NCBI GenBank assembly: GCA_049287565.1
Contig: JBAQGA010000189.1
Coordinates: forward strand, 15,626 to 79,625
DNA length: 64,000 nt
DNA from: Candidatus Aminicenantales bacterium
Lineage (GTDB): Bacteria; Acidobacteriota; Aminicenantia; Aminicenantales; UBA8522
Direction: 5' to 3'
Shown: positions 28,779 through 52,833 of the stretch, piece after piece
Numbering within the stretch: position 1 is the stretch's first letter
Layout of the letters: every line of letters begins with the position of its first letter
Notes under the pieces: generated by a model
Told to the model about the DNA's origin: nothing
Databases searched by the model: none
The model's input: the letters and a program-made list of their open reading frames with translations, nothing else
Made by a program: the position numbers and the translations under genes

Positions 28779-29231
28779 ATGAAGTTCGGAAATTTCAAGG
28801 ATATTATGCAATTCGCCATCGAGCGCGAAGAGGAAGCCGCCAGGAACTACGGCAAGTTGCGGTCAATCGCCAAGGAAGAAGCCGCCAAGAGGCTTCTGGG
28901 CGATCTCCAGCAGGAGGAGATGAACCACAAGAAGATCCTTCAGGGGCTGACCAAGGTCAAGATCGAGGCGACGACTTCCAAAAACGTGAAGGACCTGATG
29001 ATCAGTGATTATCTGGTCGAAGAGCCGCTTACCCCGGACATGAATTTCCAGGACCTCCTGATCTTTGCGGCCAAGAAAGAAAAAAAGGCCGCCGACCTGT
29101 ATTCCGATCTCGCCAAGAGATCCTCGACCAAGAACCACAAGGCACTGTTCGAGTTCCTGGCCAAGCAGGAGAAAGCCCATAAGCTGCGCCTCGAGCTCGA
29201 GTACGAAAAACATGTCCTCTGGGAGGATTGA
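28779..29231 (+). CDS. Ferritin-like diiron-carboxylate protein (rubrerythrin/COG1633-like), paralog A
   Basis: 150 aa; two E...ExxH pairs (EEMNHKK; EKAHKLRLE) in a four-helix-bundle pattern; GAGGAGG RBS; paralogous to 42005..42514 and 48837..49331. Confidence 0.6.
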
Positions 29232-29280
29232 GCCGCCTCCCCGGGCAGCTGGCGATCAATATCCAGCAAGGAGACACGAC

Positions 29281-29442
29281 ATGGAAAAATGGGAATGCCA
29301 GGCCTGTGGCTACATCTACGATCCCGAAAAGGGAGACCCCGATAACGGCGTCGCTCCGGGAACCCCGTTCGAGGAACTTCCTGAAGACTGGGTGTGTCCC
29401 CAGTGTGGCGTGGGCAAGGAGTTTTTCCAGAAGCTCTCCTGA
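29281..29442 (+). CDS. Rubredoxin
   Basis: 53 aa; [12 protein letters not shown]...[14 protein letters not shown] with the two CxxCG knuckles; AAGGAG RBS; absent from the ORF-track annotation frame as a separate gene. Confidence 0.85.
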
Positions 29443-29475
29443 GCTTTTGCCGACCGCGGGGATCAAGGGATTCAA

Positions 29476-33091: not shown

Positions 33092-34306
33092 ATGAAAATC
33101 GACGCCAAAGAAGCCCGTCAAGAAGTGCTCAAGGACATCATCCGGGAGCTTCACCATGGAGGGAACCTGGATGACCAGAAAAAACGCTTTGCCGAACTGA
33201 TCAAGGATGTCAGTCCGACCGAGATCTCGGAGATGGAGCAGAAGCTGATCGAGGAAGGCCTGCCCGAGGATGAGGTCAAGAGGTTGTGTGACGTCCACGT
33301 CCAGGTCTTCAAAGAGTCGCTCGAGGGACAGCCCCTTCCCGCCGCGATCCCGGGCCATCCCCTGCACACTCTGATGGCGGAAAACCGGGCGCTCGAGAAG
33401 ATCCTGGGGGAACTCAAGGGCCTTCTGGATCGACTCTCAGCCACGGAAGGCGGGACCGGCCTCGAGAGCCTCCGGGGCGATCTCCGGTCCAGCTTGGAAA
33501 GGCTCGCCGCCGTGGAAAAACACTACCTCAGGAAAGAAAACCAGCTCTTCCCTCTCCTCGAGGCCAGGGGAATGAGCGGTCCCTCCAAGGTCATGTGGGC
33601 GATCCATGATGACATCCGGGCGATGCTGCGGGAGTTCCGCGGGCTGCTCGTTACGGACAAAGCCTCCGAGCTCATCGCGGTGGGCCGCCGGCTCTCGGAG
33701 ATGATGTCCGACATGATCTATAAAGAGGAAAAAATCCTGCTGCCGATGAGCCTCGAGACCCTGTCCGATGAGGATTGGGCCCGGGTGAGGAAAGGTGAGG
33801 AGGAGATCGGCTACGCCTGGGTGACGCCGGGGACCGAATGGAAGCCGGCGGTCAGGGCCGCTGATCTTACGCCGTTGCCGGAATCCTATCGTCCCGCCGC
33901 ATCGCTCTCCCTCGATACGGGAAGGCTGACGCCGGAGCAGATCAACCTTCTGCTCAAGAACCTGCCCGTCGATGTCACTTATGTCGATGAGACGGACACG
34001 GTCCGGTATTATTCGGCCGGCGCCGAGCGCATCTTTCCACGGAGTCCGGCGGTAGTCGGTCGGAAGGTCCAGAACTGCCATCCTCCGGACAGCGTCCACA
34101 TGGTCAACCGCATTCTCGAGGCCTTCCGGGCCGGCCGTCGCGATGTCGCCGAGTTCTGGATCCAGTTGAAGGGACGATTCATCTCTATTCGATATTTTGC
34201 TGTTCGCGACGGGCAGGATCACTACAAAGGATGTCTCGAAGTCAGTCAGGACGTCACGGCCATCCGCGAGCTCCGGGGCGAACAGCGCCTGCTCGATTGG
34301 AAATGA
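33092..34306 (+). CDS. DUF438 / hemerythrin-like HHE / PAS domain protein (putative O2/NO/redox sensor without output domain)
   Basis: N-terminal DUF438-like region (EISEMEQKLIEEGLPEDEVKRLCDVHVQVFKE); central H...H...E hemerythrin-like cation-binding pattern; C-terminal PAS fold (VTYVDETDTVRYYS...). Confidence 0.6.
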   Translation: MKIDAKEARQEVLKDIIRELHHGGNLDDQKKRFAELIKDVSPTEISEMEQKLIEEGLPEDEVKRLCDVHVQVFKESLEGQPLPAAIPGHPLHTLMAENRALEKILGELKGLLDRLSATEGGTGLESLRGDLRSSLERLAAVEKHYLRKENQLFPLLEARGMSGPSKVMWAIHDDIRAMLREFRGLLVTDKASELIAVGRRLSEMMSDMIYKEEKILLPMSLETLSDEDWARVRKGEEEIGYAWVTPGTEWKPAVRAADLTPLPESYRPAASLSLDTGRLTPEQINLLLKNLPVDVTYVDETDTVRYYSAGAERIFPRSPAVVGRKVQNCHPPDSVHMVNRILEAFRAGRRDVAEFWIQLKGRFISIRYFAVRDGQDHYKGCLEVSQDVTAIRELRGEQRLLDWK

Positions 34307-38460: not shown

Positions 38461-39657
38461 TTGCCGATCAGGGCCATGAAGCGGGTTTATCTCGATCACA
38501 TTGCGGCCACACCCCTGGATCCCCAGGCCGTGGAGGCAATGCTCCCTTATCTAGGGGAAAAGTATGGCAATCCCCAGAGTCTCCATTCCGCCGGGCAGGA
38601 AGCGCTGGGGGCTGTCCAGGAAGCACGCTCGCGGGTCGCCCGGTTGATCGGCGCCGAGGAAAATGAGATCTTCTTCACCTCCAGCGGTTCGGAGGCCAAC
38701 AATTTCGCCGTCAAGGGAATGGCCCTGGCCCGGCGGGATAGGAATCGGCATCTCGTTGTCTCGGCCATCGAGCACCAATCCGTCCTCCATTCCGTCAAGA
38801 GCTTGGAGAAGTTCGGTTTTTCCTCGACTTTGGTCCCCGTCGACCGGGACGGCCTGGTCGATCCGGAGGACGTCAAGCGGGCCCTCAAGAAGGAGACGGC
38901 GCTCGTTTCCGTGATCCTGGCCTCGAGCGAGGTGGGGACGATCGAGCCCCTGGCCGAGATCGCCCGGGTCTGTCGTTCGGCGGGGATTCCGCTCCACACC
39001 GACGCTGTGGCGGCCGCCGGCAACATCCCGCTGGAGGTCCGGGAACTCGATGTCGACGCCCTGAGCCTGGCCGCCGACCAGTTCTACGGGCCCAAGGGGA
39101 GCGGCGCTCTTTTCCTAAGGAAAGGGACGCGGATCCTGCCTTTCATCGACGGTGGCATCCAGGAAGGCGGCCGCCGCAGCGGGACGGAGAACGTCGCCGG
39201 GATCGTCGGGATGGGCCAGGCGGCCGAACTCGCCCTGACGAAATTGGCCGAACGCGGTGAGAGGCTGAGCTCCCTTCGCGACAGACTGATCGAGCATCTT
39301 CCCCAAAAGGTGGGCCGGGTCTATCTGACGGGACACCGGGAAAAACGGCTGCCTCATCATGCCAGCTTCTGCGTCGAGTTCATCGAGGGCGAGTCCATGC
39401 TCCTGAACCTGGACATGAAGGGGATCGCCGCCTCGAGCGGCTCGGCCTGCACCTCGCGGGCGCTCAAAGCCTCCCACGTGCTCCTGGCCATGGGCATCGA
39501 TCATGCTCTGGCCCAGGGATCGCTGGTCTTCAGCCTGATCGACAACACGACGGCCGCGGATATCGATTATCTCCTGGATGTCTTCCCGCCTATCATCGAC
39601 CGGCTGAGGAAGATGTCGCCCCTCTACACCAAATTTCTGGAGGAGAACGAGAAATGA
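38461..39657 (+). CDS. Cysteine desulfurase (NifS/IscS class)
   Basis: Class-V aminotransferase fold, SSGSACTS active-site Cys loop; 398 aa. Confidence 0.9.
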   Translation: MPIRAMKRVYLDHIAATPLDPQAVEAMLPYLGEKYGNPQSLHSAGQEALGAVQEARSRVARLIGAEENEIFFTSSGSEANNFAVKGMALARRDRNRHLVVSAIEHQSVLHSVKSLEKFGFSSTLVPVDRDGLVDPEDVKRALKKETALVSVILASSEVGTIEPLAEIARVCRSAGIPLHTDAVAAAGNIPLEVRELDVDALSLAADQFYGPKGSGALFLRKGTRILPFIDGGIQEGGRRSGTENVAGIVGMGQAAELALTKLAERGERLSSLRDRLIEHLPQKVGRVYLTGHREKRLPHHASFCVEFIEGESMLLNLDMKGIAASSGSACTSRALKASHVLLAMGIDHALAQGSLVFSLIDNTTAADIDYLLDVFPPIIDRLRKMSPLYTKFLEENEK

Positions 39658-40235
39658 TCTATACCGATAAAGTCATGGACCATTTCCAGAATCCCCGCAA
39701 CGTCGGGGTGATCAAAGATGCCGACGGCATCGGTCAGGTCGGCAATCCCGTCTGCGGCGATATGATGACCTTCAGCATTAAAGTCCAAGAGAACAAGCTC
39801 AAGGACGTCAAGTTCCAGACCTTCGGCTGCGGAGCGGCCATCGCCGTTTCCAGCATCGTCAGCGAGATGGCCATGGGCAAAAGCCTGGAAGAAGCCATGA
39901 AGATCACCAACGAGATCGTGGCTCAGGAACTCGGCGGCCTGCCCAAGAACAAGCTGCACTGCTCCAACCTGGGAGCCGATGCTCTGCACGCCGCGATCGA
40001 GGACTATAAGAAAAAACAAAAGAAAAAAGACGAGGTCGCTTCGAATGCCGATAAAGAAACGGACCTGCAATCCAAGAAATGCTACTGTCCCTATTGCGAT
40101 GGTCCTCTGGAGGGGATGGAGGCCATTTGCTCGACCTGTCACAGGGTCCTTGAGGAGTGCCCGCACTGCGGCGGCCTCACCAAGAAGGGGGATCTGAAAT
40201 GTGCCAAGTGCGGAGCCGACCTGGTACCCGAATAA
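39654..40235 (+). CDS. IscU/NifU-type Fe-S scaffold fused to a C-terminal double zinc-ribbon
   Basis: N-terminal ~125 aa IscU (GNPVCGD...GCGAAI...HCSNLG), K-rich linker, then CYCPYC..CSTC..CPHC..CAKC (four CxxC pairs). Confidence 0.8.
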   Translation: MIYTDKVMDHFQNPRNVGVIKDADGIGQVGNPVCGDMMTFSIKVQENKLKDVKFQTFGCGAAIAVSSIVSEMAMGKSLEEAMKITNEIVAQELGGLPKNKLHCSNLGADALHAAIEDYKKKQKKKDEVASNADKETDLQSKKCYCPYCDGPLEGMEAICSTCHRVLEECPHCGGLTKKGDLKCAKCGADLVPE

Positions 40236-40300
40236 GCTTTTTCCCAAAGCTAAGCAGATCCCGCGGGCGAGCCTTTCCCCAAGAGGAGCGGAGAGAGACG

Positions 40301-40534
40301 GTGAAAGCAGGCGCAACGCTGGATTGCTTCGGGCTCCTTTGTCCGATGCCCATCATCCAAACGGCCAAGAAGATCAAAGAATTGAGAATCGGCGAGGTCC
40401 TCGAGATCGTTTCCACCGATGAGGGTATCAAGGTCGACATGCCGGCCTGGTGCAAAATGACAGGTCAACAATTCCTCGGGCAGGAGCAGGACGGTGATGT
40501 CTACCGCGTCTATATCCGCAAGCTCAAGGATTAA
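40301..40534 (+). CDS. TusA-like sulfurtransferase (SirA/YedF/YeeD family)
   Basis: 77 aa from GTG 40301 (GGAGAGAGA RBS); LDCFGLLCPMPIIQTAKKI with CPxP motif. Confidence 0.6.
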   Translation: MKAGATLDCFGLLCPMPIIQTAKKIKELRIGEVLEIVSTDEGIKVDMPAWCKMTGQQFLGQEQDGDVYRVYIRKLKD

Positions 40535-41465: not shown

Positions 41466-41969
41466 ATGAACAAGAAGACCGAAGACAACGTAAAGGCGGC
41501 CTTTGCCGGTGAGAGCCAGGCCCACATGAGGTACAAGGCTTTTGCCGATGCCGCGGAAAATGAGAAGTTCGCCAACGTGGCCCGCCTGTTTCGGGCCAAC
41601 AGCTACGCCGAGCAAGTCCATGCCACCAATCACCTCAAGACCTTGGCCGGAATCCGGAAGACGGCCCAGAACCTGCAGGAGGCGGTGGACGGGGAGAACT
41701 ACGAAGTCAAGGACATGTACCCGGCCTTCAAATCCATGGCCGAAGCCGAGGGCGAGAAGACGGCCGTGTTCTGGTTTAACGCCGCCTTGGAAGCGGAGAA
41801 GATCCATGCCGGCTTGTATAAAAAGGCCAAAGAAGCCGTGGACAAGGGCCAGGACCTCGCCTATTTTCCCATCCATATCTGCAGTGTCTGCGGATTCACG
41901 GTCGAAGGCGATGCCCCCGACAAGTGCCCTGTCTGCGGCGCTCCCAAAGAGAAGTTCATCAAGTATTGA
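41466..41969 (+). CDS. rbr: Rubrerythrin (diiron domain + C-terminal rubredoxin-like domain)
   Basis: AFAGESQAHMRY...E..H diiron motifs; C-terminal CSVCG...CPVCG. Confidence 0.9.
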   Translation: MNKKTEDNVKAAFAGESQAHMRYKAFADAAENEKFANVARLFRANSYAEQVHATNHLKTLAGIRKTAQNLQEAVDGENYEVKDMYPAFKSMAEAEGEKTAVFWFNAALEAEKIHAGLYKKAKEAVDKGQDLAYFPIHICSVCGFTVEGDAPDKCPVCGAPKEKFIKY

Positions 41970-42004: not shown

Positions 42005-42514
42005 ATGGCCTTAAACACGAAACTGCGGCCCTATGAGGTCTTGGCCGTCGCCATCCGGTCGGAGATCGAGGCGGCGGATTTCTACGCCAGGCTCCTGGCT
42101 CGGGTCAAGAACATCCTGCTCCAGCAGAAGCTGAAGTTCCTCGTCCTGGAGGAGAAAAAGCACCGCAAGATCCTGGAGAGGCTCCATTCCCAGCGCTTTC
42201 CTGATGTTGTGCTCAAGGTTCCTGAGAAAACGGTTCGGCCTCGGCCGAAGACAGCTCTGGATGAGAAGAGCTCCATCCTCGAGCTCTTCCAGGCGGCCCT
42301 GGAAGCGGAGAAGGCGGCCGAAACGTACTACAAAGACGCCCAGGGAGTGGTCAAAGACGTCGGGAGCAAGAAGATACTCGAATACCTGAGCCGGGTCGAG
42401 CGCAGCCATTACTTCCTGATCAAGTCGGAGATCGATCTTCTCGGCCGGTTCCCCGATTATTATGATGTCGAGGATTTCCACCTCGGTCAGGACCTCTTTC
42501 ACGTCGGCCCTTGA
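42005..42514 (+). CDS. Ferritin-like diiron-carboxylate protein (COG1633-like), paralog B
   Basis: 169 aa; EIEAADFY...EEKKHRKILE...EAEKAAETYY...ERSHYF E/ExxH pattern. Confidence 0.55.
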   Translation: MALNTKLRPYEVLAVAIRSEIEAADFYARLLARVKNILLQQKLKFLVLEEKKHRKILERLHSQRFPDVVLKVPEKTVRPRPKTALDEKSSILELFQAALEAEKAAETYYKDAQGVVKDVGSKKILEYLSRVERSHYFLIKSEIDLLGRFPDYYDVEDFHLGQDLFHVGP

Positions 42515-42580: not shown

Positions 42581-43243
42581 ATGGAGCGCGCTAAGGAACG
42601 GATCGGGAAGATCATCCGCGTCCTCCGGCGGGAATATCCCCGGAGTCGCACGGCGCTCGAGTTCGAAACGCCCCTCCAGATCCTGATCGCCACCATCCTG
42701 GCGGCCCAGTGTACGGACGAGAGGGTCAACCGGATCACGCCCGCTCTTTTCCGGAAATATCCAACTGCGGCGGCCTTGGCCGCGGCTGACCGGCAGGAGC
42801 TCGAGGCGGAGATCCGGCCGACCGGGTTTTTCCGCAACAAGGCCAAGAGCATCAGCGGCGCCGCCCGGAAGATCGTCGAGGACTTCGGCGGGGAGGTGCC
42901 GGCGAACATGGCCGACCTCGTCACCCTCCCCGGCGTGGCCCGGAAAACGGCCAACATCGTCCTCTCCTCCGGCTACGGCATCGCCGAGGGGATTGCCGTC
43001 GATACCCACGTCAAGCGGCTCTCCGGCCGGCTCGGACTGAGCCGACAGAGCGATCCCGAGAAGACCGAACGCGATCTTATGAAGCTCGTCCCCAAAAAGG
43101 ACTGGCTCGATTTTAACTACATGCTGGTCAACCACGGCCGGAAGGTTTGCCAGGCTCGTAAACCGCGCTGCCCGGCTTGCCCTCTCCGAAACCTTTGTCC
43201 CTCGGCGGTGAAACTCTTTCCGGGACTCAAGACCAAGTCATGA
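42581..43243 (+). CDS. nth: Endonuclease III
   Basis: HhH-GPD motif (LPGVARKTANIVL) and C-terminal CQARKPRCPACPLRNLC [4Fe-4S] cluster loop. Confidence 0.9.
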   Translation: MERAKERIGKIIRVLRREYPRSRTALEFETPLQILIATILAAQCTDERVNRITPALFRKYPTAAALAAADRQELEAEIRPTGFFRNKAKSISGAARKIVEDFGGEVPANMADLVTLPGVARKTANIVLSSGYGIAEGIAVDTHVKRLSGRLGLSRQSDPEKTERDLMKLVPKKDWLDFNYMLVNHGRKVCQARKPRCPACPLRNLCPSAVKLFPGLKTKS

Positions 43244-43301: not shown

Positions 43302-43817
43302 TCAGGTTTCTTTTCCCGAGATTCTTTCGTCCAATTTCCTGCGTAAAGCCTCTCTTTTGTCCTTGGTGTCTAAATAGATCTGGAGGTTGAGGATTTCCTC
43401 GGCGATGGCGTTCGCCACCTGATTTATAGCGGCCGCGCCTCCCTCTCTTTTAAAATCTTCGCCCGTGATATCGTGGACAAAGAAAAGTAGCTCCCGATTG
43501 ATCACGGGTCCGAGCATGCCTCCGGGGTCTGGAACAATGACCAGCTTGGTTATGGCCAGGATGCGGCTAAGGCGAGCATAAAAAACCGCGTCGATTTCAC
43601 CCGCCTCCCGCGCTTTCCTGAGCTCGGAAGCCATCTTGAGAAGAGTCGGTTCCAGATCGTCCGTGGTCCCCTTCGTAACCATATCCCGGAAGCTGACGAT
43701 GAACAGGTCGAGGAGTACATAACCGGTCTTCTCTTTGGCGTTGGCCGGATTGTCCATGGCCGCGAGATTAAAAGAAAAAAGAGCCAGAAATCCGAACAGC
43801 AATATCTTTTTCGCCAT
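43302..43817 (-). CDS. Secreted hypothetical protein (signal peptide), last gene of the ECF sigma operon
   Basis: MAKKILLFGFLALFSFNLAA signal peptide if start 43817; no family recognised. Confidence 0.45.
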   Translation of the reverse strand: MAKKILLFGFLALFSFNLAAMDNPANAKEKTGYVLLDLFIVSFRDMVTKGTTDDLEPTLLKMASELRKAREAGEIDAVFYARLSRILAITKLVIVPDPGGMLGPVINRELLFFVHDITGEDFKREGGAAAINQVANAIAEEILNLQIYLDTKDKREALRRKLDERISGKET

Positions 43818-43818
43818 C

Positions 43819-44376
43819 TCATACCTCCTTGGAATCATATTTGAATAACAGGAGTGCGCGCTCGATCGCTCTTTCTTTGAAGAGGATCTCCATTTTTTGA
43901 TCGAGGCTCAAACGCGGAACCTTGACGGGCCCCGCCGGAATAGAAATCCCTTGTTCCTCCCGCCTTTTAATCTTTTCGGCTGAGACCAGCACCCGCCGGA
44001 CCGATTCGGCCAGCCTGGATGTCTCGGTTTGGCCGAGGGGTGCCGTCGCGTTCTCTCTTGGGCGATAAGAGAATCCGGGAAGTTGACCGAGGGCAGATGC
44101 AAGGGCCTTGAATTCTGGCGGCGGGCCCGCTCCAGGACGTTTCAGAATAGAAAAGAAGATCCCCGCCATGATCAAGACCAGGACCGTTGCAAGCACAGGG
44201 ACGGCTCTTACCTGGGAAAGAATGGGCGGCTTTTTGCCGCCGGCCTCCCCCTTGAGGTGGGTCTCCACCCTGTCCCGGAAATTTCTGGTGCGGAAGAAGG
44301 CCAGGCCATCTTCTTCTTCCTGTCTTATCAAGGCAGAGATGTCCCCGAAATCATGATCCGTCAGGTCATTTTTCAT
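43819..44376 (-). CDS. Putative membrane-anchored anti-sigma factor
   Basis: 185 aa, a single central TM (VPVLATVLVLIMAGIFFSIL), overlaps the ECF sigma stop by 11 nt. Confidence 0.5.
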   Translation of the reverse strand: MKNDLTDHDFGDISALIRQEEEDGLAFFRTRNFRDRVETHLKGEAGGKKPPILSQVRAVPVLATVLVLIMAGIFFSILKRPGAGPPPEFKALASALGQLPGFSYRPRENATAPLGQTETSRLAESVRRVLVSAEKIKRREEQGISIPAGPVKVPRLSLDQKMEILFKERAIERALLLFKYDSKEV

Positions 44377-44848
44377 CGTTCCCCTCGTTCATGCCATCCA
44401 GCACCGCCCTGCGGGCGCGGTTCAGACGGGACATCACCGTCCCTTGCTTGAGGCCCAGGGTTTCGACCAGCTCTGCATAAGAAAGGTGTCCGTACTCCCG
44501 CAAGACAAAGACCTCCTTTTGTTTTCCCGGAAGGCGACGGACAGCCTCTTTGAGTTTGACCAGGCGTTCCCGTGTATCCAAGTGCTCGTGCTGATTGGGA
44601 TTCTCCCGGGCATCGTCCGAAGTCACGCTCCTCTGAAAAAGACGGAAGAGCCGCCTTTCTTTCTGATGGTCGAGGCAGGTGTTCCGGGCGATCCGAAGTA
44701 GCCACGCTCTCAGGGCGGCGGGCTCGTGGACCGATCCGATCTTACGAAAGGCCTTGAGGTAGACTTCCTGGGTCAGATCTTCGGCATCTAACGGATTCCG
44801 GGAGAATCCCAGGCAGATCCGGAAGACGTCTTCCCGGTAGGTCATCAT
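44366..44848 (-). CDS. ECF (group 4) RNA polymerase sigma factor
   Basis: Sigma-2 (DLTQEVYLKAFRK) and sigma-4 (LSYAELVETLGLKQGTVMSRLNRAR) regions; preferred start ATG 44848 has a GAGGAA SD (ORF track extends to 44902). Confidence 0.8.
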   Translation of the reverse strand: MMTYREDVFRICLGFSRNPLDAEDLTQEVYLKAFRKIGSVHEPAALRAWLLRIARNTCLDHQKERRLFRLFQRSVTSDDARENPNQHEHLDTRERLVKLKEAVRRLPGKQKEVFVLREYGHLSYAELVETLGLKQGTVMSRLNRARRAVLDGMNEGNDEK

Positions 44849-44909
44849 TTCCTCAGTTAGGCGAGCCGCTTTTTCTGTCCTTGCCATGCGTCTTGTGTTC
44901 ATTAGGAAA

Positions 44910-45070: not shown

Positions 45071-46081
45071 ATGATCAAAGAGGCCATGCTCTGGCGCGTC
45101 CTGGAAGAGGGGAAGGTCGAGTGTTTCCTCTGCGCCCATCGCTGTCAGGTCGCGGTGGGCAAGTTCGGCGTCTGCGGCGTCCGCGAGAACCGGGATGGGA
45201 AGCTCATCACCCGCGTCTACGGGGAGGTTATCGCCGCCCATATCGACCCGATCGAGAAAAAGCCCCTCTATCATTTCCTGCCGGGGACGACCTCGTTCTC
45301 CATCGCCACGGTCGGCTGCAACTTCCGGTGTCCTTTCTGCCAGAACTGGCAGATCTCCCAGGTGACCAAGAAAGACAAGCGCTTTGCCGACGGCCAGGCG
45401 CTCTCTGCAGAGGAGATCGTGCGAGCCGCCCGGACGCGGGGCTGCCGCAGCATCTCCTATACCTATACCGAGCCGACCATCTTCTTCGAATATGCCTACG
45501 ACACGGCCCGGTTGGCCCGGAGCGCCGGGCTGGCCAACGTCTTTGTCACCAACGGGTATATGACGGCCGAGGCGCTACGGACGATCCGGCCCTTTCTCGA
45601 TGCGGCCAACGTCGACCTCAAGGCCTTCCGGGATGAGACCTATAAAAAGATCTGCGGCGCCCGGCTTCAGCCCGTCCTCGATTCGGTCCGCCTGATGCAT
45701 GAGCTCGGCATCTGGGTGGAGGTGACCACACTCGTCGTCCCGGCTCTGAATGACAGCGATAAAGAACTCGGAGATATCGCCCGCTTCATCGCCTCCGTCA
45801 ATCCGGAGATCCCCTGGCACATCAGCCGTTTCCATCCCGACTACGAATACGATCAGGCGGCGGCGACACCCTTGGAGAGTCTCCGGAAAGCCCGTTCACT
45901 GGGGAAGGAAGCGGGATTGAAATATATCTATATCGGCAATGTCTGGGGGGAGTCGGAGAATACGGATTGCTCTGAATGCGGAAGGACGCTACTCCGCCGG
46001 AGTGGGTTTTCTATCGAGGAGAACAGGATTCATGGGGGGAAATGCTCTTTTTGCGGCGCTCCCGTCGCCGGCGTTTTTTGA
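45071..46081 (+). CDS. AmmeMemoRadiSam-system radical SAM enzyme (PFL-activase-like)
   Basis: CNFRCPFCQNW CX3CX2C motif plus the N-terminal CFLCAHRC...CGVREN Cys cluster characteristic of this subfamily. Confidence 0.8.
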   Translation: MIKEAMLWRVLEEGKVECFLCAHRCQVAVGKFGVCGVRENRDGKLITRVYGEVIAAHIDPIEKKPLYHFLPGTTSFSIATVGCNFRCPFCQNWQISQVTKKDKRFADGQALSAEEIVRAARTRGCRSISYTYTEPTIFFEYAYDTARLARSAGLANVFVTNGYMTAEALRTIRPFLDAANVDLKAFRDETYKKICGARLQPVLDSVRLMHELGIWVEVTTLVVPALNDSDKELGDIARFIASVNPEIPWHISRFHPDYEYDQAAATPLESLRKARSLGKEAGLKYIYIGNVWGESENTDCSECGRTLLRRSGFSIEENRIHGGKCSFCGAPVAGVF

Positions 46082-46129
46082 GCCTATACAAAAAATGACA
46101 GGGAGAGGAGGAATCGACCAAACGGCTTT

Positions 46130-46833
46130 CTATAAAGCCGCCAGCCATGCCTCGATGGCCTCGAGGTGGAGCGAAACCACCTCGTCCAGGCTCTTCGGTT
46201 CCTTCCGCCGGCTTTCTCGACGGAACGCGGCGACGGTCCTGTCGATATCGAGCCAGGTCGAGAGAAGCCCATGGTGAGAGGAAGAACCCGGATCGAACGG
46301 CTGAGTTTCACCCAGGGATAGAATGTCTGCGGCTGTAAATCCCTTTCCTCCCAGTTTTTTCAGCATTTTTTCATAGACCGCCGCATAAACCGCATCAAAA
46401 TGGAAATAAAGCTCCACGCCTTGAGAATCCAGGTATGATTCGACCGTCCCGTCCGCGCCGAAGTGCCCGAGGCAGTCGGGATGGAGAGGCATGGACGCAT
46501 ATTTTTCCCGGCCTTCCTTGTCGGTAATCTGTCCGAGCGGGTAGAGACGGCAGACTAAAGGACGGTCGGGATGAACCCCGCAGCCCCTGGAGTCGAGGAA
46601 AATGCAGCTCCCGTCCGGCTTGTTGCGCAGAACGATCCCCCCCTCTTCGGTGCAGGTGCGGTGGAAATCGGTGGTCGTGATGCCAAGATTCCGGGCAAGA
46701 CGGAGGGCCTCGTAGGGGGCCACCCGGATAGCCTTGTTGAAGCAGCAGGCGCTGCAGACTTGGCACTTGAAAGAAAAGGGGCTCTCTTTCTTCAGGTCGA
46801 AGACGAGCGCCGTGGGAAATCCGGCTTGATCCA
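46130..46833 (-). CDS. YkgJ-family CxxCxxCC cysteine-cluster protein (UPF0153)
   Basis: KCQVCSACCFNK motif; AGGAGG RBS 11 nt before internal ATG ~46833; the ORF-track upstream extension to 47149 is low-complexity and rejected; coordinates +/-1. Confidence 0.6.
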
Positions 46834-46966
46834 TGGGTGGATCGACCTCCTGCTCTGAGCGGCCCGGAATCCTACAATAGGAGGCAATGGTTGTCAACCG
46901 GTTCGGCCGGAGTCCCCGCGATACCGAATTCGTGATAGAATAAAGAGAAAGAACAGAAGGACGGAT

Positions 46967-47392
46967 ATGGACGAGAAATTCAGGTTCCTTGACCACACGG
47001 CCGACGCCAAATTCCAGGCCTTCGGCCGCACGCTCGAGGAAGCCTTCGCCAACGCCGCCCTGGCCACCGTCTCCCTGATGTGGGAGCCGGAGAAGGTGGA
47101 GAAAAAAGTCGACCATCCGATGAGCGTCCAAGGTCGGGACCTGGAACAACTGCTTGTCCGATTTCTAGGAGAGGTCATTTATTTGTGGGAGACCCGGTCC
47201 TTTCTGACGGCGGCGGCCGAAAACATCGTCATCGAGCCGGCCGGAGACGGTTTCCATCTCCACGCTCTTTTCCAGGGCGATGACCGGCCCGAGAAATACG
47301 CGATCTTTGGTGAGGTCAAGGCCGTCACTTACAACGAAATGAAGATCGGACGCGGCCGCCCCGTCTCCGTTCAGGTGGTGCTGGATATTTGA
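46967..47392 (+). CDS. Archease
   Basis: 141 aa; FRFLDHTADAKFQAFGRTLEEAF N-terminal signature of archease. Confidence 0.8.
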   Translation: MDEKFRFLDHTADAKFQAFGRTLEEAFANAALATVSLMWEPEKVEKKVDHPMSVQGRDLEQLLVRFLGEVIYLWETRSFLTAAAENIVIEPAGDGFHLHALFQGDDRPEKYAIFGEVKAVTYNEMKIGRGRPVSVQVVLDI

Positions 47393-47400
47393 GGTGAGAT

Positions 47401-48822
47401 ATGGAGCTCCTCAGAAAAAGTGATTTCGTCTGGGAAATTCCCCCCCACGGGGAGATGAAGGTCCCGGCGACGATCTATGCCTCGTCGCGCCTGTTGGAAA
47501 GCGTCAGGAACGACCTGACCCTGCAGCAGGCCCGGAATGTCGCCTGCCTGCCGGGCATCCAGCGGATGTCCTACGTCATGCCCGACGGCCACCAGGGCTA
47601 CGGCTTTCCGATCGGCGGGGTGGCGGCCTTCGATCTGGACCAAGGGATCATCTCGCCGGGAGGGGTTGGCTACGACATCAATTGCGGGGTGAGGCTGCTG
47701 CGGACTGATTTCTCGGAGAGAGACATCGCCGCGAAACGGAAGGAGCTCCTGGCCGAGATCTTTAAGGAGGTGCCGGCCGGAGTGGGGAAGGGCGGGATCA
47801 CCCGGCTCAGCCGGAACGTGCTCAAGGATATCCTGATCAAGGGCGCCGAATGGGCCGTCGAGAACGGCTACGGTGCCAAGGACGACCTGCTGATGACCGA
47901 GGAATACGGCCGGATGAAGGACGCCGATCCCGCCGGGGTTTCGCCACGCGCTCTGGAAAGAGGCATCCCCCAGCTTGGTACGCTCGGCGCGGGAAACCAC
48001 TTTTTGGAAATCCAGAAGGTCTCCGATATCTATGACCAGGCACTGGCTCGAATTTTCGGCATCCGGGCCATCGGCCAGGTTATGGTCATGATCCACTGCG
48101 GCAGCCGCGGCCTCGGCCACCAGGTCGCCACCGACTATATCGAGCTCATGGAGAACAGGTTCGGGACACGGGGGCTTCCCGACAGGGAATTGATCAATGC
48201 GCCCGTCCGGTCGCCGCTCGGCCGGCAGTATTACAAGTCCATGTGCGCCGCGGTTAATTACGCTTTCGCCAACCGCCAGATGATCGCCCACTGGGTTCGG
48301 GAAGTCTTTTCCAGGGTCATGGGCTGCGCCAAGGATATGAGTCAGGTCTATGACGTCTGCCACAACGTCGCCAAGATCGAAAGGCATCTGATCGAAGGGA
48401 AGGAGCGCGAGGTCTGCGTCCACCGCAAGGGTGCGACCCGGAGCTTCGGCCCGGGTCGGCCGGAGATCCCCGAGGTTTACCGGCCGCACGGTCAGCCGGT
48501 GATCATCCCCGGCAGCATGGGGACGGCATCCTATCTTCTTGTCGGTACCGCGGAAGCCGAAGGATTGAGTTTTAGCTCGACGGCCCACGGCGCCGGAAGG
48601 CTCATGTCCCGGCATGAGGCGCTTCGCCGCTTCCGCGGCGAGCAGATCCGCGACGAGCTGCAGAGGAAGGGGATCGAGCTCCAGTCGACGAGCTGGAAAG
48701 GGGTGGCCGAAGAAGCGCCAGGCGCCTATAAGGATGTAGACGAAGTGGTCAGGGTTTCCCACGAGGTTGGGATCGGCCGGCTGGTCGCCCGGGTCGTCCC
48801 GATGGGAGTGATGAAAGGATAA
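47401..48822 (+). CDS. rtcB: RNA-splicing ligase RtcB
   Basis: MPDGHQGYGFPIGGV and NHFLE... metal-binding His motifs; 473 aa; directly downstream of archease. Confidence 0.9.
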   Translation: MELLRKSDFVWEIPPHGEMKVPATIYASSRLLESVRNDLTLQQARNVACLPGIQRMSYVMPDGHQGYGFPIGGVAAFDLDQGIISPGGVGYDINCGVRLLRTDFSERDIAAKRKELLAEIFKEVPAGVGKGGITRLSRNVLKDILIKGAEWAVENGYGAKDDLLMTEEYGRMKDADPAGVSPRALERGIPQLGTLGAGNHFLEIQKVSDIYDQALARIFGIRAIGQVMVMIHCGSRGLGHQVATDYIELMENRFGTRGLPDRELINAPVRSPLGRQYYKSMCAAVNYAFANRQMIAHWVREVFSRVMGCAKDMSQVYDVCHNVAKIERHLIEGKEREVCVHRKGATRSFGPGRPEIPEVYRPHGQPVIIPGSMGTASYLLVGTAEAEGLSFSSTAHGAGRLMSRHEALRRFRGEQIRDELQRKGIELQSTSWKGVAEEAPGAYKDVDEVVRVSHEVGIGRLVARVVPMGVMKG

Positions 48823-48836
48823 ACCCACATCACCGG

Positions 48837-49331
48837 TCAGGTGATGACCTTGTCAATGTCCTTCTCGGCGTAATCCTCGAACTGAAGAGCCAGCGTGTAT
48901 TCGCTGCGCAGCATGAGATAGTGGCTGTTTTCGACATGACTCAGGTAGACGAGCATTTTTTTGTTCGGTTCCGGGACCCTCTTGGCGAGAGCGGCATAGA
49001 AATCCCGGGCTGATTTCTCCCCGTTCATCGCCTGTCCGAGGATGTCGGCCAGGCTTGAGGACGGCTTGATGACGACCGCGGGGAGGAGGCGCTGGTCCAC
49101 GGTCTTGGGGATCTCGGGCTTTTCTTTCCCGTAGAGGGAGGCAAACATCCGTCTGAGGATCTCCTTGTGTTTTCTTTCTTCCAGAGCCAGGACCCGGAAT
49201 TTTTCCTTGAGCAGGGGGTTTTTCAGCCGGCCGGCCATCCTCGTGTAGATTGTGTTGGCGTCCATTTCCGCCCTGATGGCGTAGCCCAGCAGCTTTTTTA
49301 CGGATTGTCTAGCGATACTGATCATGAACAT
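48837..49331 (-). CDS. Ferritin-like diiron-carboxylate protein (COG1633-like), paralog C
   Basis: 164 aa; EERKHKEIL and ENSHYLM ExxH pairs; similar in length and pattern to paralogs A and B. Confidence 0.55.
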   Translation of the reverse strand: MFMISIARQSVKKLLGYAIRAEMDANTIYTRMAGRLKNPLLKEKFRVLALEERKHKEILRRMFASLYGKEKPEIPKTVDQRLLPAVVIKPSSSLADILGQAMNGEKSARDFYAALAKRVPEPNKKMLVYLSHVENSHYLMLRSEYTLALQFEDYAEKDIDKVIT

Positions 49332-49510
49332 CTCCTTTAGAAACCTAAAAGATACACCAATGGCCAGGAGAGTGCAATCCTTCCGCCCCCCATTTCAAGA
49401 GAGAGTGGGTGGCATGGCGCTAGTCCCCGCCCGCCCGCAGCCGATGGTGGTGGGTGGGTGGGTCTTGGGCGAGGACGGACGGGGACGCGCCATGACAGGT
49501 CCCGCGAGCT

Positions 49511-51217
49511 CTACCTCAGCTTCTTCTTGAGCCGGCTCCAGGGGAGACAGTTCAAGATGTCCTTTTTTTCCAGCCAGGCGCGCCGCGCGATGCCGACGCC
49601 GAAGCGCATCATCCCGAGCCCCTCGGCCGAATGAGTATCCGTGCCGAGCGAGATCATGACACCGAGGTCCCTGGCTCGCTTGAGATAGAACTCGTTGAGG
49701 TCCAAGCGGTCGTAGTAAGAATTGAGCTCGAGGGCCTTACCGAGGCGCCGGGCGCCTGCCAGGACGGCCTCCAGGTCGACCTCATATCCCTCCCGCCCCG
49801 AGATCAGTCGGCCCGTCGGGTGGCCGATGATGTCAAGATGGGGATTCTCCATGGCCTTGAGCATCCGGGCGGTGACGTTCTTCTTGAATCCGGAGTGGAT
49901 CGATCCCACGACGACGTCGAGCCGGGCCAGGAGGTGATCGGGGAAGTCGAGCGAGCCGTCGGCCAGGATATCCATCTCCGTCCCCTTCAGAAGCCGGATT
50001 CCCTTCAACCGTCTATTGAGCGCCTCGATCTCCTTCATCTGCCGGCGGAGCCGGTCGGGCGTCAGACCGCCGGCATACTTAGCCGCCTGGCTGTGGTCGC
50101 AAATGGCGATGTAGGTGTAGCCGCGCCGGCGAGCGAGATCGGCTAGGCCCGAGAGGCTGACATGGCCGTCGCTCCAGTCCGAATGGACGTGGAGGTCGCC
50201 CCGGATATGGGCGTTAGCGATGAGATCCGGCAGCCGGCCTTCGAGGGCCAGTTCGATTTCGCCCCGGTCCTCGCGCATCTCGGGCGGGATGAAAGGAAGG
50301 CCCAGGACGGCGTAGACCTCGCTCTCGTCCCGGCCGGCGATTTTCCTGGAGCCGCGGAAGACGCCGTACTCGGAGATCTTGAGCCCTTTGTCCTTGGCCA
50401 GGCCGCGGAGCTTGATATTGTGGGCTTTTGAGCCGGTGAAATACTGGAGGGCGGCCCCGTACTCCTGGTCGGCGACGATGCGGAGGTCGACCTGGCGCTC
50501 ACCTGTCTCGGTCGCGATCATGACCGAGCCTTTTGTTGTGCCCGCTGCGAGAACACGGCTGATTCTGGGGAACCGGGTGAAATAGCGGACGATCGAGGCG
50601 CCGTCCTTTCCGCCGGCCAGGATATCGATATCGCCGACGGACTCCTTCATCCGGCGGAGCGAACCGGCCGGGGAGAGGCGGCCGATCCCCGGAGCGCCGG
50701 CCAGATAGGCGATGATGTCCTCGGCCACGGCCAGGGCCTCGTAGATGGGGATCCGCTCCTGGGCTTTCTCGTAGATTTCGATCCCTTTGCGGATGTTCTC
50801 CACTTTCTTGTCGCCCATTCCGTGGAGGGAGGCGAGGGTGCCATCCCGGATAGCCCTTTTCAGGTCGGCGATTCCCTGGACGCCGAGCTCTTTCTGCATC
50901 AGGTGGACCGTCTTGGCGCCGAGATTCTGGACGTTGAGGAGCTCGAAGAGCGATTCGGGGATACCGGAGAGGGCGTCCCGGTGTTTTTTCATCCGGCCGG
51001 TCTGGACGTATTCCTCGATCTTCGAGGCGATGCCGCTGCCGATGCCCTCGATCTCCTCCAGCCGCTTTTCGCGGGCGACGGTCTCGATGTCTTCGCTCAG
51101 GTCCTCGAGAATGCGGGCGGCCTTGCGGTAGGCGAGGATTTTAAATGGCAGTTCTCCCTTGATCTCCAGCGCGTCGGCGATACGGGAAAAAATCGCGGCC
51201 ACTTCCTTGTTTCTCAT
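49511..51217 (-). CDS. polX: DNA polymerase X family protein with C-terminal PHP phosphoesterase domain
   Basis: N-terminal MRNKEVAAIFSRIADALEIKGE...FKILAYRKAAR HhH PolX signature; C-terminal HVHSDWSDG PHP motif. Confidence 0.85.
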   Translation of the reverse strand: MRNKEVAAIFSRIADALEIKGELPFKILAYRKAARILEDLSEDIETVAREKRLEEIEGIGSGIASKIEEYVQTGRMKKHRDALSGIPESLFELLNVQNLGAKTVHLMQKELGVQGIADLKRAIRDGTLASLHGMGDKKVENIRKGIEIYEKAQERIPIYEALAVAEDIIAYLAGAPGIGRLSPAGSLRRMKESVGDIDILAGGKDGASIVRYFTRFPRISRVLAAGTTKGSVMIATETGERQVDLRIVADQEYGAALQYFTGSKAHNIKLRGLAKDKGLKISEYGVFRGSRKIAGRDESEVYAVLGLPFIPPEMREDRGEIELALEGRLPDLIANAHIRGDLHVHSDWSDGHVSLSGLADLARRRGYTYIAICDHSQAAKYAGGLTPDRLRRQMKEIEALNRRLKGIRLLKGTEMDILADGSLDFPDHLLARLDVVVGSIHSGFKKNVTARMLKAMENPHLDIIGHPTGRLISGREGYEVDLEAVLAGARRLGKALELNSYYDRLDLNEFYLKRARDLGVMISLGTDTHSAEGLGMMRFGVGIARRAWLEKKDILNCLPWSRLKKKLR

Positions 51218-51312: not shown

Positions 51313-52833
51313 ATGAAGGTCGTTCTAGCGGGTTACAATGTCGATAAAGAGGTCATCGACGACCTCAAGCGCCATTCCCCGCCGCGGGACGACGTAACGC
51401 CGGAGACTTTGTCCGCGTCCTACGCCCGCATTTCCCGCGATCCCCGCCCGGCCGACGAGCTCCGGGCCGTCGCCCGCCGTGAGGTGGAGCGGGCCCGCCG
51501 CTCCAACCAGACCATCATCTTCAAAATGGGGCACCACTCGGTGGCCGAACATGCCGTCTTCAATTTCGATATCATCGGCCTGAGCCGGTTGGCCCTGGAG
51601 GAGATCGAGAAGTTCCGGCTCTGCTCCTACACCGAAAAGTCGCAGCGCTACATCATGCTGGGCGATGATTTCGTCGTCCCCGAAGAGGTCCGGAAAGCGC
51701 GGCTGGAGAGGGTCTTCCTGAAGACCATCCGGGCACAGAACGCTCTCTACCACTCCCTTTACTCCAGATTGAAGCCATACCTTTTTATTAAATACAAGGA
51801 CCTCGCTCAAGACCCCCGGAACCACCCTGTCCTCGAAGGCTGGGCGAAAGAGGACGCCCGGTACGTGGTCAGCCTAGCGACCGAGGGCCAGGTCGGCCTG
51901 ACCATCAACGCCCGTAACCTCGAGCTCCTGATTCGGCGGTTTGCCGCCAAAAAAATGGCCGAGCTCCGGGAACTGAACCAACGGATCTACCGGCTGGCCA
52001 AGGAAGTCGCCCCCTCCATCATCCTTTTCACCGAGGCGTCGGATTTTGACGCCCGGACGTATGGGGAGCTGGAGGATGCGGCCCGGACCCTTTTTGAGAG
52101 GACGAAAGGCCGACCGAGGAAAGAGTCTCCCGCCGTCCGGAGCGGTGAGGAGTCCGTATCCTTGGCGGACACGACACCGGGGGGAGACGACCGGATCCTA
52201 GCGGCCATCCTCCATACGGCCAGCTCGATGCCCTACGAACAGGGCCTGAGGAGAGTCCGGTGGATGACACCGGCCGAGAAGAAGGATCTGGTCAAGACGG
52301 CCTTCCGCCGCCAGGAGTTTTACGATTTCCCCCTCCGCGAATTCGAATTTGCCGACCTGACCTTCTCGCTGGTCGTCTCGGCTTCCTGCTTCGCCCAGCT
52401 CAAGCGCCACCGTATGGCCACGCTGACCTGCCAGAGATATGATCCCGCGCTCGGGGTCACTGTGCCACCGACTGTTGAGGAGGTTGGCGCCGAACCCGAG
52501 TTCCGGCGGATGGTCGGCCAGACGGAAGAAACGCACGCGCTACTTCAAAAAAAGATCGGACCGGAGGCGGCCGCTTACGTGCTGATGAACGCACATCGCC
52601 GCCGCGTCCTGTTCAAAGTCAATGTCCGGGAACTCTATCACATCTCCCGGCTCCGCGAAGATCCCACGGCGCAATGGGAGATCAGGGAGGCCGTCGGCCG
52701 GATGTCCGCGCTGGCCCGTAAGGAAGTGCCCTTGAGTTGTCTTCTCCTCGGAGGGAAAAACCGGTATCCCGGCATCTACCGAAAAGTATTCGGCATGAAT
52801 CCCAGGTTGTCCTCGCCCAAGCTCCTCAAATAA
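51313..52833 (+). CDS. Tandem-duplicated flavin-dependent thymidylate synthase (ThyX)-like protein
   Basis: The first half has GHHSVAEHAVFNF...KFRLCSYTEKSQRY, which is ThyX-like with a Ser but RHR replaced by KFR; the second half has LKRHRMATLTCQRY and AQWEIRE, which is ThyX-like with RHR intact but Ser replaced; 506 aa is about twice ThyX size. Confidence 0.6.
   Translation: MKVVLAGYNVDKEVIDDLKRHSPPRDDVTPETLSASYARISRDPRPADELRAVARREVERARRSNQTIIFKMGHHSVAEHAVFNFDIIGLSRLALEEIEKFRLCSYTEKSQRYIMLGDDFVVPEEVRKARLERVFLKTIRAQNALYHSLYSRLKPYLFIKYKDLAQDPRNHPVLEGWAKEDARYVVSLATEGQVGLTINARNLELLIRRFAAKKMAELRELNQRIYRLAKEVAPSIILFTEASDFDARTYGELEDAARTLFERTKGRPRKESPAVRSGEESVSLADTTPGGDDRILAAILHTASSMPYEQGLRRVRWMTPAEKKDLVKTAFRRQEFYDFPLREFEFADLTFSLVVSASCFAQLKRHRMATLTCQRYDPALGVTVPPTVEEVGAEPEFRRMVGQTEETHALLQKKIGPEAAAYVLMNAHRRRVLFKVNVRELYHISRLREDPTAQWEIREAVGRMSALARKEVPLSCLLLGGKNRYPGIYRKVFGMNPRLSSPKLLK

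Follow-up and report, generated by a model that had tools for sequence, protein, structure and literature searches.

Genes and transcription units of the locus

Using Pfam and NCBIfam profile scans, we identified the genes of a 64-kb stretch of DNA from an uncultured Aminicenantes genome (hereafter the window), and the family scans recovered, intact-looking and in place, all the genes that an initial annotation had listed for this locus (Table 1). The endonuclease III (Nth) gene lies just beyond the coordinates covered by that annotation, yet is part of the same story.

Table 1. Features of the locus, with window positions and the matches on which each assignment rests
Feature	Coordinates	Strand	Evidence or remark
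Endonuclease III (Nth), HhH-GPD DNA glycosylase/lyase	42581..43243	+	TIGR01083, 259.1 bits vs cutoff 211.7
Secreted hypothetical protein (cassette gene)	43302-43838	-	part of three-gene cassette 43302..44902
Membrane protein in anti-sigma position (cassette gene)	43819-44376	-	anti-sigma role suggested by position only
ECF sigma factor (cassette gene)	44366-44902	-	Sigma70_r2/r4 matches
PflA-like radical SAM (rSAM) protein, AmmeMemoRadiSam family	45071..46081	+	TIGR04337, 356.9 bits vs cutoff 220, residues 7-336
Terminator-like GC hairpin and T-run, 3' end of rSAM gene	46053..46078	+	consensus match only
YkgJ-family CxxCxxCC protein, 234 aa	46130..46834	-	PF03692, 43.8 bits vs gathering cutoff 23
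Archease, RtcB activator	46967..47392	+	PF01951, 121 bits, 136/136 profile positions
RtcB RNA ligase, archaeal/eukaryal type, without intein	47401..48822	+	PF01139, 559 bits, 426/426 profile positions
Rubrerythrin-family ferritin-like diiron protein, without rubredoxin domain	48837..49331	-	PF02915, 73.7 bits
PolX-family DNA polymerase, C-terminal PHP domain	49511..51217	-	PRK08609, 546.8 bits vs cutoff 426, residues 2-565

The RtcB protein matches P. horikoshii RtcB along its whole length (571 bits, residues 6-473), and the residues aligned to D95, C98, H203, H234, H329 and H404 of that protein, which we take to be the metal- and GMP-binding residues, are all conserved (in the motifs DINCG, GNHF, HCGSRG, CHN and HGAGR). 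In the archease, the N-terminal LDHTAD motif is visible, and the score of 90 bits against the NCBIfam equivalog PRK00407 falls short of the 126-bit cutoff. PolX also matches the Pfam families HHH_8, DNA_pol_B_thumb and PHP. The ferritin-like gene is indeed the third small paralogue of its kind, as had been proposed, the others lying at 28779-29231 and 42005-42514; the three are 29-38% identical to one another, and a true rubrerythrin is encoded separately at 41466-41969. Neither a tRNA gene nor, by Pfam scan, RtcA was found within the 64-kb window.

Upon examining strands and spacing, we found that the rSAM and YkgJ genes, previously described as divergent, are convergent, tail to tail across a 48-bp gap, and that YkgJ (true start at 46834) is instead divergent from archease, with a TTGACA-17-TAGGAT element at 46897-46869 between the two. 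The rSAM gene looks monocistronic in the window, with its own terminator-like hairpin, and the ferritin-like gene is convergent with rtcB. The region consists of five or six transcription units and is not one operon.

A search for anti-phage defence systems with PADLOC returned a generic rSAM similarity to pVip of 33 bits only, the other seven proteins being unmatched, and assignment of the rSAM protein as a prokaryotic viperin was rejected at 30 bits for viperin_w_prok, whose cutoff is 180.

Gene order and insertions within Aminicenantes

The older Aminicenantes order is nth-rSAM-archease-rtcB, with nth as the first gene. Among related loci, the last 4 nt of nth overlap the start of rSAM in L084, L085, L004 and L047, and nth stops a few bases upstream of the rSAM gene in L005 and L007. 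In L084 (75% rSAM identity), the overlapping nth/rSAM pair is followed by YkgJ, archease and RtcB, while in L085 (69% rSAM identity) nth, rSAM and archease are contiguous on one strand and are followed by an ABC/GntR insertion and then by RtcB; L005 and L047 carry nth-rSAM and archease-RtcB as two separated pairs. The Aminicenantes operon has been broken repeatedly between rSAM and archease, indicating that co-transcription of the two is dispensable.

Two elements of the locus are later insertions, as judged from their lower GC3 and patchy presence (GC3 of 0.62-0.68 for the cassette and YkgJ together vs 0.75-0.83 in neighbours). The first is the ECF-sigma cassette that separates nth from rSAM: its ORFs overlap, its GC3 is 0.62-0.67 vs 0.78-0.81 in the flanking genes, and it is found in L082/L083 (85% rSAM identity) and absent from L084, L085 and L169. 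The second is YkgJ (GC3 0.68), a clade-specific insertion between rSAM and archease, which occupies the same slot in L002, L082, L084 and L169 and is missing from L005, L047 and L085. YkgJ homologues with 43-46% identity are found in gene surroundings unrelated to this one, and for the protein itself we found neither an NCBIfam match nor a solved structural relative.

Aminicenantes loci with rSAM identity as low as 69% still show the RtcB / ferritin-like / PolX order, and the ferritin-like gene holds the same position in L002, L082, L084, L085 and L169. Both PolX and the ferritin-like gene, which are on the opposite strand, are companions of RtcB in this phylum alone, and both are absent from the rSAM-archease-RtcB operons of the other lineages examined. 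Base-excision repair by bacterial PolX-PHP proteins together with Nth is known, with PolX of B. subtilis, T. thermophilus and D. radiodurans as examples, and the locus resembles such systems in encoding a full-length PolX with PHP domain and endonuclease III within 9 kb; here, however, the two genes are on opposite strands and in different units, and their proximity is conserved only within Aminicenantes.

These observations bear on the model of the initial annotation, in which rSAM, YkgJ, archease, RtcB, the ferritin-like protein and PolX made up a single module for nucleic-acid repair, induced by stress, to which rSAM and YkgJ contributed as accessory proteins with Cys clusters. While the adjacency of all these genes, the retained RtcB / ferritin-like / PolX order and the richness of the wider window in repair and oxidative-stress genes are in its favour, we regard the model as quite unlikely, given the alternating strands of the five or six units, the terminator-like site after rSAM, the lack of PolX and ferritin-like genes beside rSAM-archease-RtcB operons outside the phylum, and the patchy occurrence, atypical GC3 and unrelated homologue contexts of YkgJ. 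The grouping of RtcB-archease with PolX in particular is not supported beyond Aminicenantes. A connection of rSAM to archease-RtcB is supported by tight operons in unrelated lineages; one of YkgJ is not supported.

Linkage of rSAM with archease-RtcB across phyla

The signal that holds across phyla is the association of rSAM with archease-RtcB, found in three different gene arrangements and in two or more rSAM clades that are distant from each other. In the Nitrospiraceae MAG L023, rSAM, archease and RtcB are overlapping ORFs. The rSAM-archease pair is kept in 12 of 12 metagenomic relatives of L023 (75-91% identity), as is rtcB in all 10 contigs that extend far enough; because this sample was seeded on L023, it shows conservation within the clade and not frequency. 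Three further loci (L077, L107 and L117) have the order RNase HII-archease-RtcB-rSAM. The rSAM proteins of L023 and of these three all score above the TIGR04337 cutoff, and they fall into separate clades in a neighbour-joining tree.

To quantify the association, we took a census of 80 species-level genome loci, counting those with RtcB and archease within 4 kb on the same strand as rSAM. Five loci from 3 lineages qualified, against a chance expectation of ~0.15 (Poisson P ~5e-4, with three independent events counted). In 7 of the 80 loci, drawn from Aminicenantes, Omnitrophota and Syntrophobacterales, rSAM has a same-strand HhH-GPD gene no more than 300 bp away. The gene seen most often beside rSAM encodes a class I methyltransferase of unknown substrate. 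In an unbiased sample, RtcB, archease and HhH-GPD genes were all lacking from the vicinity of about 90% of rSAM loci, and none of ~15 archaeal loci has any of the three near rSAM.

Regarding the ligase itself, the window's pair resembles the archease-RtcB "tRNA splicing operon" (Desai et al. 2014, PMC3973293) in the position of archease directly upstream, with an 8-bp gap, and in the RtcB active-site residues and archease N-terminal motif. It differs in that a TIGR04337 rSAM gene stands, or once stood, ahead of the pair here and in several other lineages, and in Aminicenantes nth does so too, an extension of which our literature search found no description. Archease genes tend to adjoin DNA- and RNA-processing genes, and a tRNA m5C methyltransferase is a further enzyme that archease modulates (PMC3973293).

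With the RtcR-controlled rtcBA system of E. coli and Salmonella, the locus shares an RtcB-family RNA ligase and a presumed function in RNA repair; by contrast, the window has neither RtcA nor RtcR (a CARF and sigma-54 activator protein), and its RtcB is of the archease-dependent archaeal type, reaching only 186 of the 407 bits required by PRK09588, presumably the model for the E. coli-type RtcB. The lack of RtcR noted earlier was confirmed by Pfam scan: the only two sigma-54 activators of the window (15134-16507 and 20381-21751) carry receiver (Response_reg) domains, adjoin histidine kinases and lie 26-32 kb from rtcB. This absence had been taken to point to a different control, but it says little, because an RtcB of the archaeal/eukaryal, archease-dependent kind is not of the E. 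coli rtcBA type.

AMMECR1 and Memo, the partners after which the rSAM family is named, are likewise lacking from the window, as had been suggested: none was found by Pfam scans covering nearly all ORFs, by a six-frame motif scan, by tblastn of the whole window with verified Memo and AMMECR1 queries (best E above 1), or on reading the remaining ORFs by eye. The "orphan" state of rSAM singled out earlier is nonetheless not unusual, since AMMECR1 or Memo lies within 6-10 kb of rSAM in only 3 of 160 relatives, indicating that a locally orphan rSAM is normal. Compared with the AmmeMemoRadiSam system (TIGR04335 AMMECR1, TIGR04336 Memo, TIGR04337 rSAM; Balaji and Aravind 2007, PMC2034487), the window thus has an rSAM above cutoff with the three Cys groups and neither of the two partners, the recurrent local partners being a class I methyltransferase, HhH-GPD glycosylases and archease-RtcB.

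It could be argued that rSAM and archease-RtcB have no functional link. In that case rSAM would depend solely on AMMECR1 and Memo genes located at other sites, its substrate might be something other than nucleic acid, for example an isoprenoid lipid, and its place beside nth and archease-RtcB would be due to inherited synteny or to "archaeal-type" genes having been transferred horizontally together. Burroughs et al. (2019) are reported to link Memo also to isoprenoid modification, which would fit this explanation, as would the co-occurrence that gave the family its name, the adjacency of Memo or AMMECR1 to rSAM in L030, L159 and L074, the lack of RtcB at most loci and the ease with which the operon was broken in Aminicenantes. 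We nevertheless consider it unlikely: three gene orders in at least two distant rSAM clades, overlapping ORFs, retention in all 12 L023 relatives, and five loci where 0.15 were expected all argue for a link, and the HhH-GPD glycosylases add a second, independent association in three lineages.

Possible roles of the rSAM enzyme

The rSAM protein carries three groups of cysteines, namely an N-terminal group (C18, C21, C25, C35), the CX3CX2C motif (C83, C87, C90) and a C-terminal CxxC...CxxC (C300, C303, C325, C328), all of which are invariant in 20 homologues. The fold nearest to its AF2 model (pLDDT 71) is that of pyruvate formate-lyase activase, at a target-normalised TM of 0.70-0.72, and PflA (PDB 3C8F, 3CB8, 8FO0) is the closest relative of the rSAM core in both solved structure and sequence. 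The two differ in that identity is only ~16%, that the rSAM has two further domains, an N-terminal beta domain with four Cys and a C-terminal one with CxxC...CxxC, and that its score of 57 bits against the PFLA model is well short of the 232-bit cutoff.

This kinship raises the alternative that the enzyme is a protein-directed, PflA-like activase or maturase that modifies or re-activates RtcB or archease, for instance after oxidative damage to the RtcB active-site cysteine or metal centre. The tight operons with archease and RtcB would suit such a role, as would the protein-acting nature of the glycyl-radical activases and the retention of archease beside rSAM in L085, where RtcB has been displaced. 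In addition, one report describes the RTCB active-site cysteine as prone to oxidative inactivation (PMC12263435). On the other side, rSAM is not linked to RtcB in most genomes, the same family pairs with glycosylases and a methyltransferase, and the AMMECR1 and Memo partners would be left unexplained. To our knowledge, no post-translational modification has been reported in solved RtcB structures, and overall we find an activase role very unlikely.

We consider it fairly probable that the region is a decayed nth-rSAM-archease-rtcB repair operon and that a functional tie, probably via nucleic acid, joins its rSAM to archease-RtcB and HhH-GPD glycosylases. The region is set amid oxidative-stress, Fe-S and repair genes, and the operon has here been split into separate units by the two insertions, the ECF-sigma cassette between nth and rSAM and YkgJ between rSAM and archease. 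By family membership, archease-activated RtcB would seal RNA breaks bearing a 3'-phosphate or 2',3'-cyclic phosphate and a 5'-OH, Nth would excise oxidised DNA bases, PolX-PHP would contribute end trimming and gap filling, and the diiron proteins may handle peroxide or iron. As to substrate and chemistry, we infer that the most likely target of the rSAM is nucleic acid, and probably a base of the RNAs (tRNA) resealed by RtcB. This agrees with an old prediction that AMMECR1, rSAM and a dioxygenase (Memo) together make an uncharacterised RNA base modification (PMC2034487).

Several features count against this reading. The rSAM fold is closest to that of protein-directed glycyl-radical activases and not to known RNA-modifying rSAM enzymes. 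Furthermore, most rSAM loci are unlinked to RtcB, the most frequent neighbour is a methyltransferase, the Aminicenantes operon is broken, and the rSAM of the window looks monocistronic.

A more tentative extension of the nucleic-acid reading, possible but doubtful, places rSAM, and with it AMMECR1 and Memo, in one pathway with archease-RtcB, where it would install or repair a modified base in RtcB-ligated RNAs, or would share archease as an activator. If true, the nth-rSAM-archease-rtcB and rSAM-archease-rtcB operons would provide the first genomic handle on the substrate of this rSAM. The DNA- and RNA-repair genes of the window are ordinary ones, but the repeated placement of rSAM with RtcB-archease in other genomes offers a lead to the function of the uncharacterised TIGR04337 enzyme, whose partners AMMECR1 and Memo have human homologues that are disease-linked and biochemically unexplained.

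Gene content and transcription units around the radical SAM gene

Family scans verified every gene that the initial annotation had named around the AmmeMemoRadiSam-family radical SAM gene (rSAM). The window's RtcB aligned end to end with the RNA ligase of Pyrococcus horikoshii (571 bits) and kept the residues aligned to D95, C98, H203, H234, H329, and H404 of that protein, indicating that it is an intact ligase of the archaeal/eukaryal type. The genes of the region do not form one operon, as their strands alternate. While rSAM and the CxxCxxCC protein YkgJ had been described as divergent, they are in fact convergent with a 48-bp gap, and it is YkgJ that is divergent from archease, the RtcB activator. 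At the 3' end of rSAM, a GC hairpin with T-run overlaps the stop codon, a TTGACA-17-TAGGAT match lies upstream of YkgJ, and TATAAT-like and extended -10-like boxes lie upstream of rSAM and archease. All of these, the hairpin included, are consensus matches only, although they agree with separate transcription units.

Features of the window with their coordinates and strands
Feature	Position	Strand	Remarks
Rubrerythrin and ferritin-like genes		+	first unit in strand order, with nth
Endonuclease III (nth)	42581-43243	+	directly upstream of the initially annotated genes
ECF-sigma cassette, three genes	43302-44902	-	after nth; directly upstream of the initially annotated genes
rSAM	45071-46081	+	TIGR04337, 357 bits against a cutoff of 220 (family scan); after ECF cassette
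CxxCxxCC/YkgJ protein	start 46834	-	234 aa; start matches independent gene call; after rSAM
Archease	46967-47392	+	family scan; 8-bp gap to rtcB
RtcB	47401-48822	+	family scan
Rubrerythrin-family ferritin-like protein	48837-49331	-	family scan; after archease-rtcB
PolX with PHP domain	49511-51217	-	family scan; after archease-rtcB
ThyX, two-domain	51313-52833	+	506 aa; last in strand order; directly downstream of the initially annotated genes
ThyA-type protein, weak match	12079-12900	-	273 aa; 35.6 bits
RecO	19639-20370	-
Further oxidative-damage/repair genes	24974-25606; 27855-30678; 33092-34306	+
Further oxidative-damage/repair genes	38.2-42.5 kb
Wrong-strand ORFs	9034-10320; 24785-27267; 39624-40316; 47371-48828

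At 60% GC, the window contains long wrong-strand ORFs that beat real genes in a longest-ORF map; these have a low GC3 (0.36-0.63) and zero family matches, an example being a 485-aa antisense ORF across rtcB. ThyX carries two Thy1 stretches and is by appearance a tandem-domain form; given also the separate 273-aa protein with its weak match to a ThyA-type thymidylate synthase, the genome may encode two thymidylate-synthase-like enzymes.

AMMECR1 and Memo, the name-giving partners of the rSAM family, are absent from the window, as originally proposed. Neither turned up in the 64 kb when nearly all ORFs were scanned against Pfam, and inspection of regions mis-called in the crude ORF map identified DeoC, a membrane protein, endonuclease V, FtsX, and FtsE. 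A six-frame scan of the window for the AMMECR1 motif RGC[IV]G and the Memo motif PHAGY gave one spurious antisense match only, and tblastn of the window with two verified queries from rSAM loci of other genomes (the Memo of L030, TIGR04336, 325 bits, and the AMMECR1 of L074, TIGR04335, 100 bits) returned nothing better than E = 1. Likewise, neither RtcA nor RtcR of the E. coli-type rtcBA operon is present in the 64-kb window, in agreement with the lack of an RtcR near rtcB noted before; the window's two sigma-54 activators are receiver-domain proteins beside histidine kinases, 26-32 kb away. We found no locally encoded tRNA or non-coding RNA substrates in the 64 kb (zero tRNA genes, zero Rfam matches). 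A known defense system was ruled out, with the proteins showing no match beyond generic rSAM similarity to viperins.

Neighbors of the radical SAM enzyme across phyla

Scanning one genome per GTDB species, we obtained 80 loci whose rSAM relatives show 48-79% identity and which stem from many bacterial and archaeal groups. Among these, Memo lies near rSAM only in L030 and AMMECR1 only in L074, and both fall outside the 25 commonest Pfam families of immediate rSAM neighbors. Since the two are almost never found near rSAM among its relatives, a locally orphan rSAM is the norm, and the weight that had been placed on this state in the window is not supported.

The connection between rSAM and RtcB, by contrast, proved real and broader than the initial annotation had recognized. 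Archease and RtcB occur within 4 kb of rSAM on the same strand in 5/80 loci (three Aminicenantes, the Nitrospiraceae MAG L023, and the unclassified L077). It is possible that rSAM and archease-RtcB share these loci without a functional link, a reading to be weighed against the ~0.15 loci expected by chance (flanks of ~0.52 Mb in total and a single rtcB in each 3.5-Mb genome) and against a Poisson P of ~5e-4 for three independent events. In L023, rSAM, archease, and RtcB have overlapping ORFs. Using the L023 rSAM as the seed of a metagenome scan, we retrieved 12 relatives at 75-91% identity, a sample biased toward this lineage that measures conservation within the clade, not frequency; rSAM-archease was kept in 12/12, with rtcB also present in all 10 contigs reaching far enough. 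A different order, RNase HII-archease-RtcB-rSAM, was observed in L077, L107, and L117 (spans 132-4216, 1857-7000, and 1775-7014, respectively), with a small GxxExxY-family gene between RtcB and rSAM in the latter two. The rSAMs of L023 (348 bits) and L117 (329 bits) pass the TIGR04337 cutoff.

HhH-GPD glycosylases form a second recurrent pairing, lying at most 300 bp from rSAM on the same strand in 7/80 loci, either as Nth upstream (Aminicenantes, an Omnitrophota MAG) or as a MagIII-like gene overlapping the rSAM 3' end (Syntrophobacterales). In a rough neighbor-joining tree of 147 sequences, the RtcB-linked rSAMs are split between the clade of Aminicenantes and a distant L023/L107 group, and the HhH-GPD-linked ones among three or four clades.

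The commonest neighbor of this rSAM family is a class I SAM methyltransferase of ~260 aa with weak DVU_1556-family and UbiE-like similarity, which stands directly upstream of rSAM in 12-13/80 loci, mostly MAGs labeled as deltaproteobacterial groups (Desulfobacteraceae, Syntrophobacterales). Methyltransferase-rSAM loci include L014, L020, L022, L026, L031, L032, L035, L037, L066, L104-L131, and others. In L022 (labeled Deltaproteobacteria; 2271-4234) and L026 (Desulfobacteraceae; 251-2205), archease-RtcB lies on the opposite strand 6-9 kb from the methyltransferase-rSAM pair, a layout common to both at a distance too great for linkage.

Candidate substrates of the radical SAM enzyme

The new element of the region is rSAM. 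We know of no characterized member of its TIGR04337 family, nor of an established reaction for this rSAM, AMMECR1, or Memo; the AMMECR1 gene is lost by deletion in AMME syndrome, and MEMO1 has been studied in cancer and development. Because rSAM recurs in operons both with archease-RtcB and with HhH-GPD glycosylases, we favor a nucleic acid as the substrate of rSAM, and these two associations narrow the search accordingly. Possibly, rSAM is instead directed at protein, acting on RtcB or archease. Its closest relatives in sequence and fold are glycyl-radical activases such as PflA, from which it differs by two added Cys-rich domains, and an AF2 model of moderate quality (pLDDT 71) gave the expected PflA-like radical SAM fold only, with no substrate clue. 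As to the favored nucleic-acid substrate, Balaji and Aravind, 2007 predicted an RNA base modification as the product of AMMECR1, this rSAM, and a ring-opening dioxygenase (Memo) (PMC2034487). Among the papers searched, none linked this rSAM to RtcB or archease; the most relevant comparative paper, Burroughs et al. 2019 (J Biol Chem 294:10211), may already list such neighborhoods.

In a bacterium without evident tRNA introns, archease-RtcB would most plausibly repair cleaved RNA. Nth and PolX-PHP would suit base-excision repair of DNA, and the diiron proteins the handling of peroxide or iron. The 2019 paper, from the same group as the 2007 prediction, reportedly connects Memo with the modification of nucleotide bases and isoprenoids. 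Archease-RtcB is a well-known pair of RNA ligase and activator, and archease also modulates a tRNA m5C methyltransferase and generally adjoins nucleic-acid enzymes (PMC3973293). Our analysis also raises the possibility that RtcB is not the only protein served by archease. The rSAM neighborhoods name concrete proteins for joint testing, and the value of the window lies in this comparative lead for an uncharacterized enzyme family.

Inherited order and insertions in Aminicenantes

In the related locus L084 (75% rSAM identity), the end of nth overlaps the start of rSAM by 4 nt, followed by YkgJ (-), archease-RtcB, a ferritin-like gene (-), and PolX (-), and in L085 (69%), a single strand carries nth, rSAM, and archease without interruption, with an ABC-transporter/GntR block inserted before RtcB. 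Furthermore, nth abuts rSAM in L004, L005, and L047, the latter two also having archease-RtcB downstream. L082/L083 (85%) carry the same ECF cassette as the window, and in L169 the slot between rSAM and archease holds an NAPRTase gene and YkgJ. From these gene orders, we infer an ancestral unit nth-rSAM-archease-rtcB, with the ECF cassette and YkgJ as later insertions, in agreement with their GC3 of 0.62-0.68 versus 0.75-0.83 for the conserved genes.

The proposed interpretation is partly supported: the rSAM-RtcB connection stands, whereas a single repair module finds no support, as the strands alternate, and the ferritin-like gene and PolX, although found downstream of RtcB phylum-wide, are always on the opposite strand and were never seen outside the phylum. 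Nor is the suggested role of YkgJ supported, as its homologues are few (471 at E < 1e-5) and those at 43-46% identity stand in unrelated contexts, so that YkgJ is tied to RtcB by clade-specific position alone; given the contexts of these more distant homologues, we dropped it as a conserved partner. A search for a solved structural relative of YkgJ found none. We advise against annotating YkgJ and PolX as members of an Rtc-like module. The window's cluster is mostly inherited synteny interrupted by insertions, in an ordinary, partly decayed neighborhood of known genes.

The ECF cassette, low in GC3, comprises an overlapping ECF sigma factor, a membrane protein in anti-sigma position that has no Cys and hence is not of the ZAS type, and a signal-peptide protein; it sits exactly between nth and rSAM and is common only to relatives with at least 85% rSAM identity. 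In Aminicenantes (L082, L084, L085, L169), the interval downstream of rSAM is a hot spot for insertions, with contents that differ by lineage: YkgJ, YkgJ plus a 99-aa ORF, NAPRTase plus YkgJ, or ABC transporter plus GntR, this last between archease and RtcB. The window is otherwise rich in oxidative-damage and repair genes, among them an endonuclease V-like ORF (identified by eye), Fpg, a ferritin-like gene, a small ORF, a rubredoxin-reductase-type FAD oxidoreductase, a DUF438-hemerythrin-PAS protein, NifS/NifU/TusA/NadA, rubrerythrin, and RecO. The order POR, NifU, NifS, NadA, rubrerythrin, ferritin-like, nth is largely kept across Aminicenantes loci.
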